Positions 2,085-13,763 of a stretch of 32,000 nucleotides of DNA are shown piece by piece. The position numbers and the translations under genes are program-made. Below the pieces are notes generated by a model. The model saw only the letters and a program-made list of their open reading frames with translations. It ran no database searches and had not been told where the DNA came from. Every line of letters starts with the position of its first letter. Positions within the stretch are counted from its first letter, which is position 1. The stretch is taken from assembly GCF_000146505.1 (NCBI RefSeq), contig NC_017448.1:1830001-1862000 (forward strand). Direction: 5' to 3'. This DNA comes from Fibrobacter succinogenes subsp. succinogenes S85 (GTDB lineage Bacteria > Fibrobacterota > Fibrobacteria > Fibrobacterales > Fibrobacteraceae).

Positions 2085-4178
2085 TTAGAACCCCTGTGTT
2101 AATGTTAATTTGTACTCTCGCCCCGGTGTCGGGAATGATATATAGGGATTTCTATAAGTTTCATCCGTCAAGTTCCTGAGCGCAAAAACAAGTCGAGTTT
2201 TCGTAAAAGGTGTATAGCCCAAAGCAAAGTGGTGTAAATCTACAGCAGGCTGTTTTATGCGATTTGCACGGTCATCAAAGATGTCGGTACGATATTCCGA
2301 AGTCCATGTCAAATCAAGATGGAACGGCAAATCAAATCGAGCCTCCGCATAATACGAACGCGCAGGTTCATTCGGGAGTTGTTTGCCATAGTAATACTTT
2401 TCATCGCTACGATCTTCAGCATCTTGGAATGTCGCACGTAAAACCACGGAAAGCCATTTTTTCGGCCTACTTTCGAGTTCCGCTTCAAGCCCACGAATAT
2501 GCGCTTCTCCAACATTCTTCGGTTTTGAAATACCTGCACTCACCAACCAATAAATTCCATTATCCAAATCGGTTTCAAAATACGTTGCGCGAATTGCGGT
2601 ATTGCTTTTGGGAATCATATAATAGCCACCGACTTCAAAACGCAACGCCGATTCATCCTTCAAATCAGGATTTGAGAGCATTCCTGGATAAACACCATAA
2701 AGCTCCATCAATTGTGGCGTACGAACAAATCGTCCAAAACTCAAGTTGCCACCGAACCGAGAATTCGGTGCATCATAGCGCACAAAGCCTCGTCCAGACC
2801 ACGAAACATTACGGTCTTTCGCTGTTTTCAGCACAACTGATGTCGTAGGCTGAACAAATTTTCCACCATGAATATCATCCTTGACAATTAACGCCGAAGC
2901 TTCACCGCCTACAGAAAGGTTTCGAACAACATCATAAGAAACATCACCAGAGATATTCGTCGCAACACGCATCAAGTTCCATTTACTCGACGACGTCCCC
3001 CGCTTTTCATAATAGGACGCATCCAAGGATAAACGCAAATTCGCTTCTAGCCGTTCTCCCAAACAACTGGCAACGATTTCAGGGGCGAGGCTATAACCCG
3101 CAGCACCATATTCCTGCATTCCAGACATCGTATAGCCCAGATGATCCAATGGATAATACGAATGCGAAGTCGCCTTTTCATACTTTCCCGTCAGCGAAAG
3201 TTCCAACCAAAGCCAACCGAGCAACTGCGGAAGTTCTGCACGATACGTCGTCTGTACAAACTCGCCCTTGTAGCCCGCCACAGACGTTTGGTCGTCATCG
3301 CGTCCTGGGTTACCGCCTTCAGAACGGCTAAAGTTAAAATTCAAAGTCGAAAACACACCATTCGCATGCAAGACGCGAACTTTGGCAAGCCCAGAATATT
3401 CCGTAAATTCAGCGTTCCTGCGCGTATCCGTAAAATCGTCATCGGGATTGTACGGCGTTCCGTTCTGGCTATCAAATTCGTAATCGTTATCGCTATGCCG
3501 CGCCGACAAAGACGCACTCACCGAGGCGCTATCCGTCAAGCGGGAGAGCTACTGCGTCGAAGCCTCCCACGTGTTGTGGCTGCCGTAACTTAAAAGCACG
3601 CGTCCCGACTTTTTCTCTTCAGGCTTGAGGGCTACTTCGGCAGGTTTCGAACCTTTCGTGATAAAGTTGATGGCACCGCCAATACCGCGACCGCCAAACT
3701 TTGCCGGCACACGGTCCTTATAGACTTCAATCTTTTCAATCTGATTCAAGTCAATCGTTCCAAAATCAACCGCACCGCCCGACGCATCATTCAGCGGAAT
3801 GCCATCCATGCAAACGACAATGTTCTTTGCCGAGACTCCGCGGATGCTCACGGTCTGGAAACTACCGACACCGCCTTGGCGCGTGTACTGCACGCCCGGC
3901 AAAGACGCCAAGACTTCAGCCGCCGAAAGCGAACGACCTTCCCACGCTTCGGGTAAAACTTCAGCATAGCTCGAAGACGCCTGCAAAGGCTTTTCAACAC
4001 TCGTCGTCTCGTAAACGGAGGACTCGCCTAAATCTTGGATAAACTCCTCGGAAAAACTAGAAACGCTCGCAAGCAGTACGGCCGCGCACACGCGAACGCC
4101 CAAGAGACTGCCAGAACGACTGCACGCAGTCAAACACCCACGCAAACGCGTGGCTATGCAAAGCGATGTCTTTCGCAC
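2085..4178 (-). pseudogene. btuB: TonB-dependent outer-membrane receptor (BtuB-like) interrupted by one in-frame TAG at 3549..3551
   Basis: The 209-aa plug fragment (SVSIRGVSAKNIVVCMDGIPLND, FITKG) and the 484-aa barrel fragment (ends ...REYKLTLTQGF, a terminal aromatic) are in the same frame (4178-3539 = 639 = 3x213). The junction reads SHNTWEASTQ-TAG-LSRLTDSASV. A cobalamin riboswitch lies upstream. The start is uncertain (GTG at 4178). Confidence 0.8.
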
Positions 4179-4211
4179 CGTTTAACAACCCGTGGCGCAA
4201 AGCGCCCGTTG

Positions 4212-4396
4212 TGCCTTACAGTTCTTCTGACTCGGGGATCACTCTACTTCCAGCCCCTTCACACCCGCCTTGCGGCAAGCATTGGTTTATGCTGGTTTCG
4301 TCCTCCCTTACAGCGGCGAGACCGTTCCCGGCTTTCACGGGATTCTCTTATATCGCATCGTTGGTGATACGATACAGCGTTTTACCGCATAAGGCA
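4212..4396 (-). promoter_or_regulatory. cobalamin (B12) riboswitch aptamer in the btuB-like leader
   Basis: The minus-strand RNA contains AAGAGAATCCCGTGAAAGCCGGGAACGGTCTCGCCGCTGTAAGGGAGGACG, matching the conserved core (GGGAA..GGTGAAA..CCGC.ACTGTAA). It also has a B12-box-like GAGTCAGAAGAACTGTAAGG. A closing P1 helix pairs tgcctta (4396-4390) with taaggca (4218-4212). Confidence 0.8.
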
Positions 4397-8299: not shown

Positions 8300-9301
8300 A
8301 TGCTTAATTTAATAAGGGCTGTTAGCCGCTTTTTATCGACATACACATCGCTTTTCGTCATCGCATGTGCAGTCATCGCATTTTTCATCCCCATGCTTTT
8401 TGGCTGGGTTCACGGCAACACAAGCTCGATTATTCTCGGCATCATCATGCTCAGCATGGGCCTTACCATTACCATGGACGATGTCCGCAACTTGATGAAA
8501 CGTCCTGGCGACATTTTTCTCGGCGCCGTCGCGCAATACACCATCATGCCGCTCGTCGCATTTACACTCACGAAAGTCTTCGGGCTTGACCCGTATTTGG
8601 CCATCGGCATCATCCTAGTCGGTTGCTGCCCAGGCGGCGTTTCAAGTAACGTTATGAGCTTCTTGGCTAAAGGCGACGTGACCTATTCCGTGAGCATGAC
8701 CATGGCAAGCACACTTCTCGCTCCGCTCATGACTCCGCTTTTGGTCCTTTGGCTTGCTGACACGAGCATCGAAGTGAACGCCGTCGGCATGTTCCTCAAC
8801 ATCCTTTACGTGACCGTCTTCCCGATTGCAATCGGTTTCACCTGCAACTACTTCTTTGGTAAACGCGCAGGCTTCAAGGAATTCCAATCGAACATGCCCG
8901 CCGTGAGCGTTATCGGCCTTGCGTTAATCGTCGGTGGCGTCATCGTGACCGTTCGCCCGCAGCTTTTGACAAACGGCTTTGGACTTATCGCCCTCATTCT
9001 CGCAGTGGTATTCTTGCACAATGGTCTCGGCTACGTGCTCGGCTACAGCGTTGGTCGTTTGTTCAAATTCAACACCGCCAAGAAGCGCACCATCTCCATC
9101 GAAGTCGGCGTGCAGAATGCAGGCATGGCAACAGTCCTTGCCGGCGCATTCTTCGCCAACCCAGAGAATCTCGCCCTCCACCCGGAAGCCGCCCTCTGCG
9201 TTGTGCCATGCGCCATCAGCTGCGCCTACCATTCCATCAGCGGAACAATCCTCGCCGGCATCTACGCACACATGGACAAGAAGAAAGCAGTGCAAGGGTA
9301 A
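8300..9301 (+). CDS. bile acid:sodium symporter (BASS/SBF) family transporter
   Basis: 333 aa, polytopic. Has LVGCCPGGVSSNVMSFLAKGDV and SIEVGVQNAGMA, motifs characteristic of the SBF family. Confidence 0.85.
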   Translation: MLNLIRAVSRFLSTYTSLFVIACAVIAFFIPMLFGWVHGNTSSIILGIIMLSMGLTITMDDVRNLMKRPGDIFLGAVAQYTIMPLVAFTLTKVFGLDPYLAIGIILVGCCPGGVSSNVMSFLAKGDVTYSVSMTMASTLLAPLMTPLLVLWLADTSIEVNAVGMFLNILYVTVFPIAIGFTCNYFFGKRAGFKEFQSNMPAVSVIGLALIVGGVIVTVRPQLLTNGFGLIALILAVVFLHNGLGYVLGYSVGRLFKFNTAKKRTISIEVGVQNAGMATVLAGAFFANPENLALHPEAALCVVPCAISCAYHSISGTILAGIYAHMDKKKAVQG

Positions 9302-9304
9302 AAG

Positions 9305-9454
9305 CTAAAAACGTTCACCCAGCCTCTTCAAAATAATTAGCACCTCCACGTACACCAACATCTGCGCGAAATACCAAATAATTGCCATACCCACAAAAAC
9401 AATAAAAAGTTTGAAGCGCACAACAGGAGTCAACGGAGGTCTCTTTTTGTTCAT
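9305..9454 (-). CDS. possible 49-aa single-pass membrane peptide (below the ORF-track cutoff)
   Basis: Hand translation gives MNKKRPPLTPVVRFKLFIVFVGMAIIWYFAQMLVYVEVLIILKRLGERF. GAGGA lies 8 nt upstream of the ATG. It has a basic N-terminus and one hydrophobic helix. No homology was assessed. Confidence 0.35.
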   Translation of the reverse strand: MNKKRPPLTPVVRFKLFIVFVGMAIIWYFAQMLVYVEVLIILKRLGERF

Positions 9455-9539
9455 TTTAAAATCCTCGTTTTGTCATAATCTAACTCCGAGGTGCGACAAT
9501 TAATGTCGTCTACCAGGGAGCCTTATGTTTAAAGGAAAG

Positions 9540-9565
9540 CGGAGTCCCAATCGGGGCTCCGTTTT
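9540..9565. terminator. GC-rich hairpin at the downstream end of the minus-strand three-gene unit
   Basis: cggagtccc-aatc-ggggctccg, 9 bp including one G-U. It is followed by TTTT on the plus strand and by cTTTCCTTT on the minus strand. It lies 25 nt past the stop at 9586. Confidence 0.45.
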
Positions 9566-9585
9566 CGCATCACATTTATTAGGAA

Positions 9586-9834
9586 TTATTTCGTCTCCGT
9601 CATCAATTGGTCATCCAATTGCGACAGAGAACGCATCTTAAAAGCCCCAAACGTCCCCGCACGGCAATCAACACAGATTTTTCCGTCCAGGTTTTCGCGA
9701 GCCATTCTTTCAATATCTTCGGCAAAGGCACGAACCGCCAAAACGATTTCGTCAACAGAACCAGCACGGATGCAATCCGCAGTCCAGCTATGTTCAACGA
9801 CTTCATTTTCCACAGTTACATTTCGAGCTGTCAT
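9586..9834 (-). CDS. hypothetical 82-aa protein (no family recognised)
   Basis: Its ATG overlaps the upstream stop as ATGA (9831-9834), implying translational coupling. Confidence 0.6.
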   Translation of the reverse strand: MTARNVTVENEVVEHSWTADCIRAGSVDEIVLAVRAFAEDIERMARENLDGKICVDCRAGTFGAFKMRSLSQLDDQLMTETK

Positions 9835-10454
9835 GCAGCCTCCTTTGCGTCAACTTTACCAACTTTACACACAACAGACTTCACGAGAAGTCTCAGCTGT
9901 GTCAACGGATGCTCAGGATAGAGGTCATCATAGAATGGGTCCTCGCCCAAGCTATAACAACACCCTTTGCGCGGCATCCTATATATACAATCATACCCAG
10001 TATTCTCTGAGGAGGTTCCGAAAACGTCAGCGACAATTTTGCGATACTCGTCCTCGTGAATAGACCTTCGTTGGTATGAATTACCACGTTCCTCGCCAGA
10101 AACGAACAAGCGAACTATCTTTCGGCCTTTACACACATACAAATTCAGGAAGTAGCACACTTTCTCCTTCGTCTGATCCTTCGTAATGTAATAACGGCAA
10201 AGCACACCGTTTACCACAACATCGCGAAAATCAACGATACAAGAATTAGGCTTTTCCAAAGACCGAAGCAAATCTACACCGTCAAAGGAACGTATTTCAG
10301 GCAGAAAATCCTTACGAGATATTTTGCACGCCATCGCAAGAATCAAGGATTCCTTCGATTCACGGGCAAAATAAGCCTCTTTTTCATCACAGGCCTCTTT
10401 CTCGACCTTACGATACTCGGGAGGCATAAGTTTTTCTAGCCATTTCAACGACAT
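9831..10454 (-). CDS. hypothetical 207-aa protein, Cys-rich (no family recognised)
   Basis: ATG at 10454 is preceded by AGGAGG, 9 nt after the upstream stop. The ORF is long in an AT-rich context, where chance ORFs are unlikely. Confidence 0.7.
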   Translation of the reverse strand: MSLKWLEKLMPPEYRKVEKEACDEKEAYFARESKESLILAMACKISRKDFLPEIRSFDGVDLLRSLEKPNSCIVDFRDVVVNGVLCRYYITKDQTKEKVCYFLNLYVCKGRKIVRLFVSGEERGNSYQRRSIHEDEYRKIVADVFGTSSENTGYDCIYRMPRKGCCYSLGEDPFYDDLYPEHPLTQLRLLVKSVVCKVGKVDAKEAA

Positions 10455-10463
10455 TCCAACCTC

Positions 10464-10847
10464 CTAGAAAATTTTTGTGCGAAGAAGAGCCTTAACATAG
10501 TCCAAGAAGTTCATTTTCCTTGCAGGAGCAGGAATTTGCGAAAGATCCAAACCATAGTTCGAAGCCTTCGCAAAACCAACGCAAAAGGCTTGGCGTTTGC
10601 TGAATCGATTCGGGATGCAGTAACACACAATGCTTTCTCCAGAATCGTTAACAAAACCACTCTCGAAGCAAAATTTGCCCTCGCCAAAGCGATGCATTCC
10701 AACGCCATTCACCGCTCTCTCATAAGAAGCAGCAACACGGCTTAACGCCTGCTGAACAGATACAATATTGCGTTCGCTAGACTGCATAATCAAGCACTTG
10801 AGTTTGGTAAGTTCATTTTTAATAAAAATGTCATCATGTAGTTTCAT
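10464..10847 (-). CDS. hypothetical 127-aa protein (no family recognised)
   Basis: I prefer the ATG at 10847 (MKLHDDIFIKNE..., with GGAGA 7 nt upstream) to the TTG at 10910 used by the track. Confidence 0.6.
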   Translation of the reverse strand: MKLHDDIFIKNELTKLKCLIMQSSERNIVSVQQALSRVAASYERAVNGVGMHRFGEGKFCFESGFVNDSGESIVCYCIPNRFSKRQAFCVGFAKASNYGLDLSQIPAPARKMNFLDYVKALLRTKIF

Positions 10848-10990
10848 TGAAAATCTCCATTTTAAATCATTCACATTAATCACGCCCTCTATTTCAGAGA
10901 CTAGAGTCAAAAGTGAAAAAGCAGCCGGCAGCAGTTTTCTAGACCGTACCGGCCATTTTCTCTATTTTTTCAATAGCAGCAAGGCTACCG

Positions 10991-11150
10991 AAAAAGCATT
11001 TATATGGATTTACACTAGCAGCTCGACTTATTTGGCATCAGTCTTCACTGTCCGAATAAGCGAGCATCAACTAGACTTTATCTCGCCTAGAGCCAACTAC
11101 AATTCAACGAATTATGTCGGCACCAAGCTAAAGCGACTTACGTAACGAAA
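10991..11150. repeat. conserved ~150-nt non-coding element, copy A (upstream of the 127-aa gene)
   Basis: Aligns with 11414-11562 at roughly 80% identity by eye, with one 11-nt indel (tatctcgccta, only in A). The two copies share an identical 24-mer, tcggcaccaagctaaagcgactta. The central hairpin is 11021-11065. Confidence 0.8.
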
Positions 11151-11178
11151 AACACCGTTATGCGCAATTTATGGTCGG

Positions 11179-11367
11179 TCAAGCGTCTTCCTCTTCTTCG
11201 CCATCACCTTCTTCATCCTCATCCGAAGGCGGTTCATAATCCCATCCGGCATTGAACGATCTGGCGAAGTCGTCTTCTTCATCAACGTAACCATCTTCTT
11301 GTTCTTGCTCAAATTCATCATCATTGATGTGCTCGTCAATAAACTGATTCCAATTGTCCTTTTTCAT
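11179..11367 (-). CDS. hyper-acidic 62-aa protein (28 of 62 residues are Asp/Glu)
   Basis: MKKDNWNQFIDEHINDDEFEQEQEDGYVDEEDDFARSFNAGWDYEPPSDEDEEGDGEEEEDA. AAGGAGA lies 5 nt upstream of the ATG at 11367; the track start at 11388 lacks an SD. Confidence 0.6.
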   Translation of the reverse strand: MKKDNWNQFIDEHINDDEFEQEQEDGYVDEEDDFARSFNAGWDYEPPSDEDEEGDGEEEEDA

Positions 11368-11413
11368 GTTATTCTCCTTGAAGTCCATTAATCAGACTTT
11401 CTGGGATAGAGCT

Positions 11414-11562
11414 AAAAATGAATTTATTGGATTTACATTAGCTGTTCGGATTATTTGGAATCTGTCTTCACAGACCGAATAATGGAGCATCAGCTAGACT
11501 TGAGCCAACCATAATTCACCAAATTATATCGGCACCAAGCTAAAGCGACTTATGTAACAGAA
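11414..11562. repeat. conserved ~150-nt non-coding element, copy B (upstream of the acidic-protein gene)
   Basis: See copy A. The central hairpin is 11450-11483. On the minus strand it has a TATAAT-like box (gatataat; cataat in copy A). Confidence 0.8.
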
Positions 11563-11668
11563 AAGGCTACAAAGTCAATCATGATAATGGCCGTATCTAC
11601 ATAAGTAGCTTGAACGGCTTTAACCCTAATATAAGATATTTCCCAAAACACGTCAAGTCTCTCCCAGC

Positions 11669-11710
11669 AAAAAAAAAATAAAACCGCATCGGACAAATGT
11701 ACGACGCTGC
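11669..11710 (-). terminator. rho-independent terminator (second of two after the YidE-like gene)
   Basis: On the minus strand the hairpin gcagcgtcg...cgatgcgg is followed by TTTTATTTTTTTTTT. Confidence 0.5.
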
Positions 11711-11892: not shown

Positions 11893-13557
11893 CTAAGAGA
11901 TTAGCAGTATCGCAAGCACTTGCCCACTCAAGATTCTCAGTAACATCGTGAGCGGATAAACAGATGCGTAACCAACGTTTGTCGCTTCGGAATTGCTGAG
12001 GCCGTTTGCGAACGCGAGAGCCGGAGGGTCTGTCGTTGCACCTGCAAGCACACCGCAAAGCGAAAGGTAATTGACCTTGAACACCGCCTTGCCAACAATC
12101 GCCACAATCATCAGCGGGAAGAACGTGATAATCGCCGAGAGCGCCATGTAGTAGAATCCGTCGCCATTCAAGAGCACATCGAAGAACTTGATACCTGCAT
12201 TGAGACCCACGCAGCTGAGGAATATCGTAATGCCGAGTTCACGCAGCATGAGGTTTGCGCTGTTCGCCATGAAGAAGTTGAGCGGGCCAATCTTACGTTT
12301 ACGGCTGAGGATAATCGCGACAATCAGCGGGCCGCCAGCAAGGCCGAGTTTGAGCGGAGTCGGCATGCCAGGAATCGCAACCGGGATGCTACCGACAATC
12401 ACGCCGAGGAAAATGCCGAGGAATGCGGGGAGAATTTCCGGATGGTCAAGCGCCGTGAGCGAGTCACCCAATTCCTTCGCGGCAGCGGCAATGCTTTCCG
12501 GCGTACCGACAACGAGCAACTTATCTGCAAACTTCACACGGATATCGAGGCGCCCGGTAAACTTAAATCCGCCACGCGTCACTCGGCTCACGGTCACGCC
12601 AAAGCGGTCATTGAGCGCAAGCTGCTGAATGCTCTTGCCAAGAATTTTCTTGTTCGTCACGAGAATCGTCTTGACCGCCAAATTCGACTTCTGGAGCGTA
12701 ATCGGGTTTTCTTGCTTTTCGCCAATAATCTTCTGCAAACTCTCAATCGCATCCGGCATACCGACGACATGCACCAAGTCATGGAGCTCAAGCGTCATAT
12801 CGCCCTTCGGCATGTTAATCACCTGATCGCGAGCATGGCGCGTTACCACAGCACCCGAAGAGATGAGCCCCGGAATGTCCTTGATCTTGCAGCCCACAAG
12901 ATTTACGTTATCCACACGGAGCGTGCAAGAGACGATTTCCTTGGACTGTTCTGCAATTTCTTTCTGGTATTCTGCGGCAGCAACTTCCGGCTTTTGCCTA
13001 AAGAACACGCGCACAAGAATCATCACGAGGATAATGCCAATCACGCCGAACGGGTAAGCCACCGCATAGCCAACGCCCGTGAGTGAAGCGTCTACGCCAG
13101 CCGCCGTCAGAGCAGAATTCGCAGCACCGAGCGACGGGGTGTTCGTCACGGCACCGCAAAGCATGCCAATCAGCACCGGCACGTTATCGTGCATGTTCGT
13201 CGTAAAGTAAATAAGAACGGTAGCAAGTACACCCAGGAGGACGATACTCACCGCAAGAATGTTGAGCACCAGACCGTGTCGCTTTATGGAGTCAATAAAG
13301 CCCGGGCCTACTTGCATACCGATTGTATAGACAAAGAGAATGAGGCCAAATTCCTGCATAAAATGAAGAACGCTGGGCTCGATTCGCATTCCGATATGAC
13401 CGAGAAGGATTCCTACGAAAAGAGCGCCAGCTCCCCCAAGGCTCACGCCTTTCACCTTGACCTTGCCCAGCATGATGCCGATGGCAGCCGTCAAGGATAG
13501 CGCGAGTACTTGTTGCCCTACGGAGGGCTTTGCAAACAGGTCAATTAGCCAGTCCAT
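11893..13557 (-). CDS. YidE/YbjL-type putative transporter (AAE family, two central TrkA-C/RCK-C domains)
   Basis: N-terminus MDWLIDLFAKPSVGQQVLALSLTAAIGIMLGKVKVKGVSLGGAGALFVGILLGH. There is a duplicated membrane domain and soluble middle domains. I prefer the ATG at 13557 (GAAGG upstream) to the GTG at 13566. Confidence 0.8.
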   Translation of the reverse strand: MDWLIDLFAKPSVGQQVLALSLTAAIGIMLGKVKVKGVSLGGAGALFVGILLGHIGMRIEPSVLHFMQEFGLILFVYTIGMQVGPGFIDSIKRHGLVLNILAVSIVLLGVLATVLIYFTTNMHDNVPVLIGMLCGAVTNTPSLGAANSALTAAGVDASLTGVGYAVAYPFGVIGIILVMILVRVFFRQKPEVAAAEYQKEIAEQSKEIVSCTLRVDNVNLVGCKIKDIPGLISSGAVVTRHARDQVINMPKGDMTLELHDLVHVVGMPDAIESLQKIIGEKQENPITLQKSNLAVKTILVTNKKILGKSIQQLALNDRFGVTVSRVTRGGFKFTGRLDIRVKFADKLLVVGTPESIAAAAKELGDSLTALDHPEILPAFLGIFLGVIVGSIPVAIPGMPTPLKLGLAGGPLIVAIILSRKRKIGPLNFFMANSANLMLRELGITIFLSCVGLNAGIKFFDVLLNGDGFYYMALSAIITFFPLMIVAIVGKAVFKVNYLSLCGVLAGATTDPPALAFANGLSNSEATNVGYASVYPLTMLLRILSGQVLAILLIS

Positions 13558-13763
13558 TTTATACACCTTCTTTTTTTCGCACCCAAATTTAGTTTAGGAG
13601 ATTAATAATGACTAATAGATTATTCATATTAGATTAATAACGAAAAATGATAGATAACGCATTTGCGCAATTTACGCCCCTCCAGTTGCTAGTATTAATA
13701 TAATTTTACCGCGCTACAAAAGGCAAACAAAAAAGTCTACCCCTTACAGATTCTCGGCAAAAA

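Follow-up and report, generated by a model that had tools for sequence, protein, structure and literature searches.

What is the role of a non-coding sequence of about 150 nt that occurs twice, on either side of one small gene, in a minus-strand gene cluster of Fibrobacter? The window, the whole stretch of DNA analyzed here, covers 32,000 nt of Fibrobacter succinogenes subsp. succinogenes S85 (contig NC_017448.1, positions 1,830,001 to 1,862,000), and positions below are counted from its first letter. An earlier reading of the same letters, called here the original prediction, had described the repeat as a duplicated element whose hairpin is preserved by compensatory base-pair changes. Judged from sequence comparison, the element is a conserved two-hairpin domain of the sense strand that lies just 5′ of one gene family, has been duplicated once, and is joined to differing downstream contexts. 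In our estimate there is about an even chance that this predicted structure is a cis-acting leader or intercistronic RNA. As a candidate for a previously undescribed structured RNA family, the element appears credible but thinly sampled, and it is rare.

Two copies of one element

The genes around the repeat are all on the minus strand. Read on that strand, the order is an Asp-Al_Ex/TrkA_C transporter gene, copy B of the element, a 62-amino acid (aa) gene, the leader with copy A, and genes of 127, 207, 82 and 49 aa. The two copies are:

10991-11151, minus strand: copy A, with the possible closing stem P0 and hairpins 1 and 2 (HP1 and HP2), between the 62-aa gene and the 127-aa gene; match to the full covariance model of 195.8 bits; repeat families D1/D2
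11415-11563, minus strand: copy B, upstream of the 62-aa acidic gene; covariance-model match of 161.3 bits; 80% identical to copy A

The duplication had been reported with roughly 80% identity, one invariant 24-mer and one 11-nt indel, and all of this was confirmed by repeat search, MAFFT alignment and shuffled controls. The repeat search matched 10991-11078 to 11414-11501 at 80% identity and 11082-11152 to 11494-11564 at 85%, and the MAFFT alignment of the two copies had a mean column identity of 81% with a single gap of 10-11 nt. The 24-mer TCGGCACCAAGCTAAAGCGACTTA occurs exactly twice in the window (11117-11140 and 11529-11552) and was absent from 100 of 100 shuffles, even when 3 mismatches were allowed; the core pattern of HP2 likewise has only two occurrences in the window. 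The copies are spaced 412-423 nt apart with one gene in between, and in most lineages the element is single. Copy B is without the 11-nt segment 3′ of HP1 and also without the entire extension (HP3 to HP5, described below) that follows copy A. A 32-codon minus-strand open reading frame (ORF) noted in the original prediction holds for copy B only (11392-11490), there being no counterpart in copy A.

Folding of the element on the gene strand

When folded on the gene (minus) strand, both copies formed HP1 and HP2, with z-scores of -3.3 and -2.1. The models point to two conserved hairpins, of which HP1 is not part of the original prediction; they may be joined in a three-way junction by a third, closing stem, P0. 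The positions of these structures, taken from minimum free energy (MFE) folds, RNAalifold, counts of paired positions and base-by-base reading, are:

11085-11128, minus strand: predicted HP1 of copy A, containing "cataat" (MFE fold, RNAalifold, pair counts)
11498-11540, minus strand: predicted HP1 of copy B, inner stem as in copy A, containing "tataat" (MFE folds)
11021-11065, minus strand: HP2 of copy A, the hairpin of the original prediction (base-by-base reading, MFE fold, RNAalifold, pair counts)
11450-11483, minus strand: HP2 of copy B, the hairpin of the original prediction (base-by-base reading, MFE fold, RNAalifold, pair counts)
11136-11145, minus strand: 5′ strand of the possible stem P0 of copy A, within the conserved start motif CGUUACGUAAGUCGC, partner 11010-11019 (RNAalifold; same stem in the L020 MFE fold)
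11010-11019, minus strand: 3′ strand of the possible P0 of copy A, GCUAGUGUAA, formerly read as a left terminal inverted repeat (RNAalifold, pair counts)
11548-11557, minus strand: 5′ strand of the possible P0 of copy B, UUACAUAAGU, partner 11433-11442 (MFE fold, RNAalifold)
11433-11442, minus strand: 3′ strand of the possible P0 of copy B (MFE fold, RNAalifold)

HP1 of copy A reads GCUUGG-U-GCCGACAUAAUUC-GUU-GAAUUGU(A)GUUGGC-U-CUAGGC, with an outer stem GCUUGG/CUAGGC and an inner stem GCCGACAUAAUUC-GUU-GAAUUGU(A)GUUGGC. The 11-nt deletion in copy B gives the outer stem a new partner, UCAAGU. HP2 of copy A reads GCUCG-C-UUAUUCGG-A-CAGU-GAAG-ACUG-AUG-CCAAAUAA-GU-CGAGC on the gene strand. Reading base by base, HP2 was found in both copies at the positions originally given, and so were both exchanges said to preserve it: C11027-G11060 in copy A is A11450-T11483 in copy B, and A11040-T11049 in copy A is T11463-A11472 in copy B. 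The claim that the hairpin has been kept by compensatory change is supported.

The closing stem proposed by RNAalifold pairs UUACGU.AGU with GCU.GUGUAA. The element termini (TTACACTAG and CTTACGTAA), which the original prediction had taken for imperfect terminal inverted repeats, match at 6 of 9 positions and are better described as the two strands of this possible stem, with G·U pairs. The most conserved block of the element is the 5′ motif CGTTACGTAAGTCG, which contains the perfect palindrome TTACGTAA in copy A and in the L001, L027 and L008 copies introduced below; copy B reads TTACATAA. Upstream of copy B, a 14-nt inverted repeat (11598-11611 and 11543-11556; 13 of 14 positions complementary, 41 nt apart) complements the 5′ strand of P0. 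It could be an alternative pairing that competes with P0, or it may be due to chance; alignment of the flanks showed that it is not conserved in other lineages.

Distribution of the element

Related contigs (L numbers) were retrieved via the 127-aa and 207-aa proteins and by DNA pattern scans, and were searched with nhmmer and two covariance models, R1 and R2. The copies all come from Fibrobacter and represent only about five independent lineages. In every case the element is located directly upstream of the 127-aa gene, copy B being the sole exception. Six contigs hold both copy A (about 97% identity) and copy B (98-100%) and belong to the lineage of the window itself. The L001 type has a single copy that is 82% identical to copy A (156 bits), and a divergent copy in the L027 type reached 50.6 bits (E 2e-9). 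A distant copy occupies the orthologous site of the L020/L015 type, between an acidic gene and the 127-aa gene; it scored 18.7 bits with R1 and 90 bits with R2, the latter not being an independent detection of L020, as the R2 training alignment (A4) already held L020- and L027-type rows.

The covariance model found no copy in L035-L038 or L023-L026, which hold distant 207-aa homologues, and no further copies in 146 kb of related loci. An exact 20-mer scan of 185,579 species genomes gave 0 matches. A gapped HP2 pattern gave 1 match in 596 Gb of genomes, in a Gemmataceae metagenome-assembled genome (L016); this match, which was not inspected, was put down to chance. The pattern had 0 matches in viral contigs and matched 3 metagenome contigs, all at this same locus. 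These two scans find exact matches to A/B-type sequence only, and neither gave a Fibrobacter match among species-representative genomes. A blastn search with the whole gene module against phage and plasmid collections gave no match. The carriers found are metagenome assemblies, at least one of them labelled bovine, and one L020-type contig, L022, belongs to a genome assembly at NCBI. Fib_succ_major genes are present on related contigs, and the window itself is ordinary chromosomal DNA.

Between the window and L001 or L027, homology spans copy A and everything downstream of it and does not include copy B, so a single copy upstream of the 127-aa gene is the ancestral arrangement. By this comparison copy B is a lineage-specific duplicate of the first half of the leader, placed before the 62-aa acidic gene. 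Since the divergence between A and B equals that between A and L001 (about 20%), the duplication is not recent, or copy B was imported. Two features lie upstream of copy B:

11584-11594, minus strand: conserved box ACGGCCATTAT, upstream of copy B (alignment of upstream flanks)
11628-11656, minus strand: best sigma-70-like match, TTGACG-17-TATATT, upstream of copy B; candidate only

In L001, L027 and L008 the box ACGGCCATTAT also precedes the element, by 35-50 nt, which suggests that the duplicated unit took some upstream sequence with it, possibly including a promoter. Sigma-70-like matches in the region are no more numerous than in shuffles.

Possible selection on the pairing, and the strand concerned

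The pairing was scored in a model-based alignment of 12 distinct sequences and 45 pairs, in which the divergent L027 and L020 copies were aligned by the structure-aware model. Paired cells made up 94.3% in this alignment compared to 87.8 ± 0.6 in shuffles. Changes on both sides were seen at 15 of the 45 pairs, compared to 4.5 ± 1.3 in shuffles and 1-4 in controls with slid partners. When the 11 stem substitutions observed between A and B were placed at random, at least 38 of 40 pairs were kept in 0.035% of 20,000 trials, the tested structure being one that was derived from these same sequences. The same simulation kept as many pairs as observed in 0.02% of trials for A and L027, and in less than 0.005% for A and L020. 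Folded alone, L027 and L020 each form HP1 and HP2 despite largely different stem sequences: the inner stem of HP1 is UUAAUC/GAUUAA in L027, and the HP2 stem of L020, GGUCUAUUGGG/CCCAAUAGACC, shows three consecutive double changes. The MFE fold of L020 is the complete three-way junction (z -3.69).

The stems on the gene strand include 67 G·U cells compared to 13 A·C cells, and 16 pairs have G·U somewhere. Copy A has 7 G·U and 0 A·C on this strand, so an antisense RNA would lose about seven of its pairs. Within lineages, three changes keep pairing only on the gene strand, G-U to A-U in copy B of L011, C-G to U-G in copy B of L017, and G-C to G-U in copy A of L012. The excess of G·U over A·C favors a sense RNA over an antisense RNA. 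An antisense RNA had been left open in the original prediction on the strength of one T-G pair that is a wobble only on the plus strand. That argument fails against these counts, and at the position in question the gene strand has C·A in copies A and B, C·C in L001, and Watson-Crick pairs in L027, L008 and L020. In these sequences it is an internal mismatch without a strand signal.

Downstream contexts and proposed mechanism

The leader with copy A extends another 140 nt beyond the element, with three further predicted hairpins:

10970-10991, minus strand: HP3, UCGGUAGCC-uugcu-GCUAUUGA, specific to the A-type leader and conserved in L001, L027 and L008 (RNAalifold, MFE fold)
10909-10962, minus strand: HP4, specific to the A-type leader; a long hairpin, GAGAAA-UGGCCGGUACGGU...ACUGCUGCCGGCUG-CUUUUUC, with a U-rich tract behind it (RNAalifold, MFE fold)
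10887-10899, minus strand: HP5, a small hairpin, CUCU-GAAAU-AGAG, with the start codon of the 127-aa gene about 35 nt downstream (RNAalifold)

RNAalifold assigns 8 pairs to HP3, with G-U/A-U/G-C exchanges among the lineages. HP4 is GC-rich and resembles a terminator or attenuator; a simple terminator scan missed it. The stem of HP5 is varied to CCCU/AGGG in L001 and CCACU/AGUGG in L027. Two kinds of downstream context can be distinguished: HP3-HP4 (with the U tract)-HP5 in A, L001, L027 and L008, and a ribosome-binding site directly behind the element in B, L020 and L015. Copy B reaches AAGGAG and a start codon about 45 nt past P0, with no HP3 to HP5, and the L020 element begins 36 nt past the stop codon of the preceding gene. 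By inspection, no anti-terminator or anti-Shine-Dalgarno pairing between the element and HP4 or the ribosome-binding site is conserved, and only complementarities of 4-5 nt were seen. CUCC in copy B and UCUUC in L020 were considered as partners of GGAG[A] and set aside as too short to count.

The original claim that the element lies in the 5′ leader of minus-strand genes is supported. We propose that a structured RNA domain of about 150 nt would be transcribed together with the minus-strand genes, as part of the 5′ leader or intercistronic region of a Fibrobacter-specific module that encodes the acidic peptide and the 127-, 207-, 82- and 49-aa proteins. The target of the folded domain would be the ORF that follows it, in cis. 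Where the leader is of the A type, the effect may run through the terminator-like HP4 behind the domain, HP4 serving as an attenuator. Copy B and the L020 type abut the Shine-Dalgarno sequence, and there the domain could affect the initiation of translation or the stability of the mRNA. Through the duplication, a single signal, which could be a module protein or a small ligand, would come to govern two genes in a row. One sensor joined to different expression platforms is the usual pattern of riboswitches and protein-binding leaders.

If the family is real, it would be an undescribed structured RNA without an Rfam relative that controls a Fibrobacter-specific module. The RNA would offer a handle on the module, since the factor that binds or switches it would indicate the stimulus for the genes. 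With one domain before two genes and three downstream contexts, the duplication would be a ready-made natural comparison. The practical weight is limited by the very narrow distribution and the few independent sequences.

Comparison with known leader RNAs

None of the 4227 Rfam models gave a match within either copy at the gathering score, nor at E <=10 with permissive filters, and a literature search turned up only known Fibrobacter motifs such as Fibro-purF. The closest resemblance is to orphan leader motifs and riboswitch candidates, namely Fibro-purF, a Fibrobacter-specific orphan motif (PMC7668255), and those in motif collections (PMC5737381, PMC2864571). Features in common are a structured domain, about 150 nt long, within the 5′ leader of a single gene family, rarity and a restriction to Fibrobacter, several stems with compensatory changes, and the combination of one domain with different downstream contexts (a terminator-like hairpin or an adjacent ribosome-binding site). 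In contrast to these motifs, the downstream genes encode uncharacterized small proteins and not metabolic ones, so that no ligand can be guessed; there are also far fewer independent sequences than those studies use, and ligand binding or switching is conjectural here. As regards a riboswitch, we find a sense-strand structure on about five lineages, weak on the sequence-only alignment, with HP4 behind A-type copies and a ribosome-binding site behind B and L020. In a reading that we consider unlikely, a few rumen or gut Fibrobacter lineages would have a new riboswitch-like class that senses a ligand or a protein, with the element as its sensor domain. A single three-way-junction aptamer would then be connected to a terminator in A-type leaders and to an adjacent ribosome-binding site in the B and L020 types, and its duplication would have brought two successive genes of a peptide- or immunity-like module under one signal.

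The element also resembles protein-binding autoregulatory leaders and translational operators, such as ribosomal-protein leaders and phage operators. It is hairpin-rich and immediately upstream of a cistron, its apical loops are variable while the stems are conserved, and a second copy before another module gene would give co-regulation. Unlike in those systems, no module protein has a recognizable RNA-binding fold, the 207-aa protein being PsbP/Mog1/Eag/Tsi3-like and the 127-aa model unusable.

A hammerhead ribozyme, a three-way junction whose conserved core is CUGANGA ... GAA ... UH, was considered and rejected. A, B and L001 have CUGAUG ahead of HP2 but lack A9, the corresponding block is AGAAGAAG in L027 and GAAUAAAU in L020, and GAA follows HP2 only in B and L027; the Rfam search gave no match either.

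Alternative explanations

The most probable alternative, although we consider it unlikely, is that the element belongs to a discrete small RNA, either a transcript of about 250 nt with its own terminator (the element with HP3 and HP4) or a processed piece of the operon transcript, which would act in trans or as the RNA partner (antitoxin-like, or a scaffold) of module proteins. The structural evidence is the same as for a cis-acting leader, and A-type copies have a long GC-rich hairpin with a U-rich tail about 100 nt downstream. Type III toxin-antitoxin loci consist of an RNA gene, a terminator and a protein gene. The A-type layout shares this order with ToxI/ToxN, with a structured non-coding RNA upstream of a small protein gene and a terminator-like hairpin between them. 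In some genomes the module also lies in variable, defense-island-like surroundings (RelB/PIN, PLDc_2, AAA_14, WCX, PDDEXK_2). However, the copies are not a tandem array of short (about 36 nt) repeats of the ToxI type, being 412-423 nt apart, which led us to reject an RNA antitoxin of type III, and PADLOC and Pfam gave no match to ToxN-, AbiEii- or CptN-type toxins. A cis-acting leader is favored over a stand-alone RNA because copy B and the L020/L015 type run without a terminator straight into a ribosome-binding site and start codon, and because the position of the L020 element, so close behind the upstream stop codon, leaves no room for a promoter. No conserved promoter was found at the 5′ edge of the element.

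Several findings weigh against a leader function, and some of them favor a second alternative, that the element has no function of its own. In this case a part of the intergenic region would have been duplicated as a segment, and the inherited hairpins would persist by chance or by hitch-hiking. Sampling is confined to the five or so lineages mentioned. Building the alignment of the two divergent lineages on structure biases the pair counts toward structure, and in a sequence-only alignment of A, B and L001 the covariation is weak, with 3 both-side pairs compared to 2.1, a number that was matched in 55 of 500 shuffles. The folding energy of L027 is unremarkable (z -0.66), and three of its P0 pairs are broken. 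The element appears dispensable, in that L008 and L009 have a decayed copy from which HP1 is precisely deleted, and in L007 the 127-aa gene is preceded by an unrelated region without the element. Compared to more distant relatives, the element is 77-84% conserved, like other non-coding DNA, while the genes are 81-93% conserved. Differences between A and B are similar in stems (11/80) and loops (11/64). On the other side, copy B keeps 38 of 40 pairs after about 20% divergence (P about 0.0004), L027 and L020 form both hairpins in the same place with largely different stems, and the substitutions are biased to G·U-compatible ones on one strand only. On balance we regard the absence of function as quite unlikely.

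A double-stranded DNA promoter or operator, in which the inverted repeats and the palindromic box TTACGTAA bind a transcription factor and were duplicated so that both genes share the regulator, is very unlikely in our view. It would explain the perfect palindrome within the most conserved block and the conserved box upstream, and TATAAT or CATAAT stands 30 nt downstream of the CGTTACGTAAGTCG motif. The original prediction had read these hexamers as a -10 box at the end of the invariant block. They are instead the 5′ arm of the HP1 inner stem and behave as stem sequence: the L027 type has CTTAAT at this position, the L020 type has CGTAAT, and L008 has lost it by deletion, and no -35 partner is found at 16-18 nt. 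Protein-binding palindromes keep their sequence, whereas the stems here change and their pairing is kept, with the 15 both-side pairs described above. The asymmetry between G·U and A·C would be meaningless for duplex DNA and argues against such an operator. In searches of Pfam, PHROGs and PADLOC, no module protein matched a DNA-binding family.

Mobile or recombinogenic DNA, whether a miniature inverted-repeat transposable element (MITE), as the original prediction had allowed, or a single-stranded-DNA hairpin site (attC-like, or a transposon end) marking gene-cassette boundaries, would fit a short non-coding repeat with internal hairpins and imperfect inverted ends that recurs between consecutive small genes of a module found in at least three genomic neighborhoods, flanked in L001 by Rpn-type PDDEXK_2 and Transposase_31 genes, but it is scarcely credible. 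Many dispersed copies and target-site duplications had been named as the signs of a MITE, and neither was found. There are two copies in the 32-kb window and one locus in every genome fragment found, the genome, viral and metagenome scans, which need exact matches and had no complete genome of this lineage to draw on, and the covariance search of 146 kb gave no dispersed copies, and the flanks (..TCG|TTACGT...GTGTAA|ATC.. for A and ..CTG|TTACAT...ATGTAA|ATC.. for B) contain no duplicated target. The inverted ends behave as an RNA stem with G·U pairs, and the substitutions keep RNA-type pairing on one strand. Homology between contexts is unbroken at the element, the acidic gene upstream belongs to the module, and in L007 homology breaks 15 nt before the start codon. 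An integron attC site or gene cassette was rejected in view of two separate hairpins and ends CGTTACGTAAG and GTGTAAATCC without GTTRRRY; no RYYYAAC/GTTRRRY core sites were found, nor any integrase or transposase among the 18 window ORFs that were scanned against Pfam, which are a part of all ORFs in the window.

The gene module and its surroundings

The genes that accompany the element are:

11893-13566, minus strand: Asp-Al_Ex/TrkA_C transporter, with a terminator-like hairpin
11179-11367, minus strand: very acidic 62-aa ORF, downstream of copy B and preceded by AAGGAG; called as 62 aa in L011-L013; no family match
10464-10847, minus strand: 127-aa ORF, behind copy A; preceded by the element in all five lineages
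9831-10454, minus strand: 207-aa ORF; the remainder of the module spans 9305-10454
9586-9834, minus strand: 82-aa ORF of the module
9305-9454, minus strand: 49-aa ORF of the module

Searches of Pfam, PHROGs, PADLOC, NCBIfam and PDB sequences gave nothing usable for the 62-, 127-, 207- and 82-aa proteins. An exhaustive profile search found only 4 representatives of the 127-aa family among 1.8 billion protein cluster representatives, so no deeper alignment is possible. Its AlphaFold2 model was unusable, with a predicted local distance difference test (pLDDT) score of 49. The model of the 207-aa protein (pLDDT 82.5) is nearest to the PsbP/Mog1/DcrB/EagT6/Tsi3 fold (Foldseek E about 1e-4, with a low TM-score of 0.3-0.5). 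Its structural neighbors include chaperones of the type VI secretion system (EagT6, SciW) and immunity proteins (Tsi3, TplEi), which hints, at the level of the model, at an immunity- or chaperone-like and not an RNA-binding protein.

The three or more neighborhoods of the module are transporter/SBF, ThiF-aminotransferase-Fib_succ_major (L001, L020, L023) and pilMNOQ (L007). Module neighbors of defense or mobility type in L001 and L020 are PDDEXK_2 (Rpn-type), Transposase_31, RelB/PIN, PLDc_2, AAA_14 and WCX. In L011, compared to positions 9300-11700 of the window, the leaders and the 62-aa gene are 97-99% identical, the 127-aa gene 88% and the 49-aa gene 80%, a mosaic that points to recombination within the module. 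Three metagenome contigs share a 214-nt deletion within the 127-aa gene (window 10826-10612; junctions at L017:1033/1034, L018:968/969 and L019:1685/1686), with both leader copies intact.

The side upstream of the element varies among lineages. In L027 and L008 the acidic gene is replaced, about 170 nt upstream of the element, by a conserved ORF for a 33-aa amphipathic peptide (L027:4017-4118 and L008:1092-1193; MSRIFESLA.AAVSAIATTLANE..KWAKSKVH); in L008 the gene caller picked a 78-aa ORF on the opposite strand over it. At L027:3090-4000, a remnant of the Asp-Al_Ex transporter gene (its 3′ end and terminator) comes before about 1 kb of AT-rich DNA in which no genes were called; judging by these remains, the upstream side of the locus is eroding in this lineage. 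In L020, P0 and HP1 of the element overlap with a 35-aa Cys-rich ORF (MGTWSHASCCVSCCVGYNRRNPTRLSIGYKQIKFE; L020:4422-4529) that has GAGGAG as its ribosome-binding site; this ORF is not conserved among the other lineages. A second, unrelated tandem duplication before the module is found in L035 (2251-3136), where three tandem units of about 344 nt, each encoding helical peptides of 33 and 29 aa, precede a distant form of the module (233-203-82-49 aa). These peptides give the impression, and it is an impression only, of leaderless bacteriocins.

Elsewhere in the window, a cobalamin riboswitch (4200-4392, minus strand, 78.5 bits) precedes a gene for a TonB-dependent receptor. The receptor is read as two ORFs, with the Plug domain at 3549-4178 and then the beta-barrel at 2085-3539, both on the minus strand; this split may reflect a frameshift, a pseudogene or a sequencing error.

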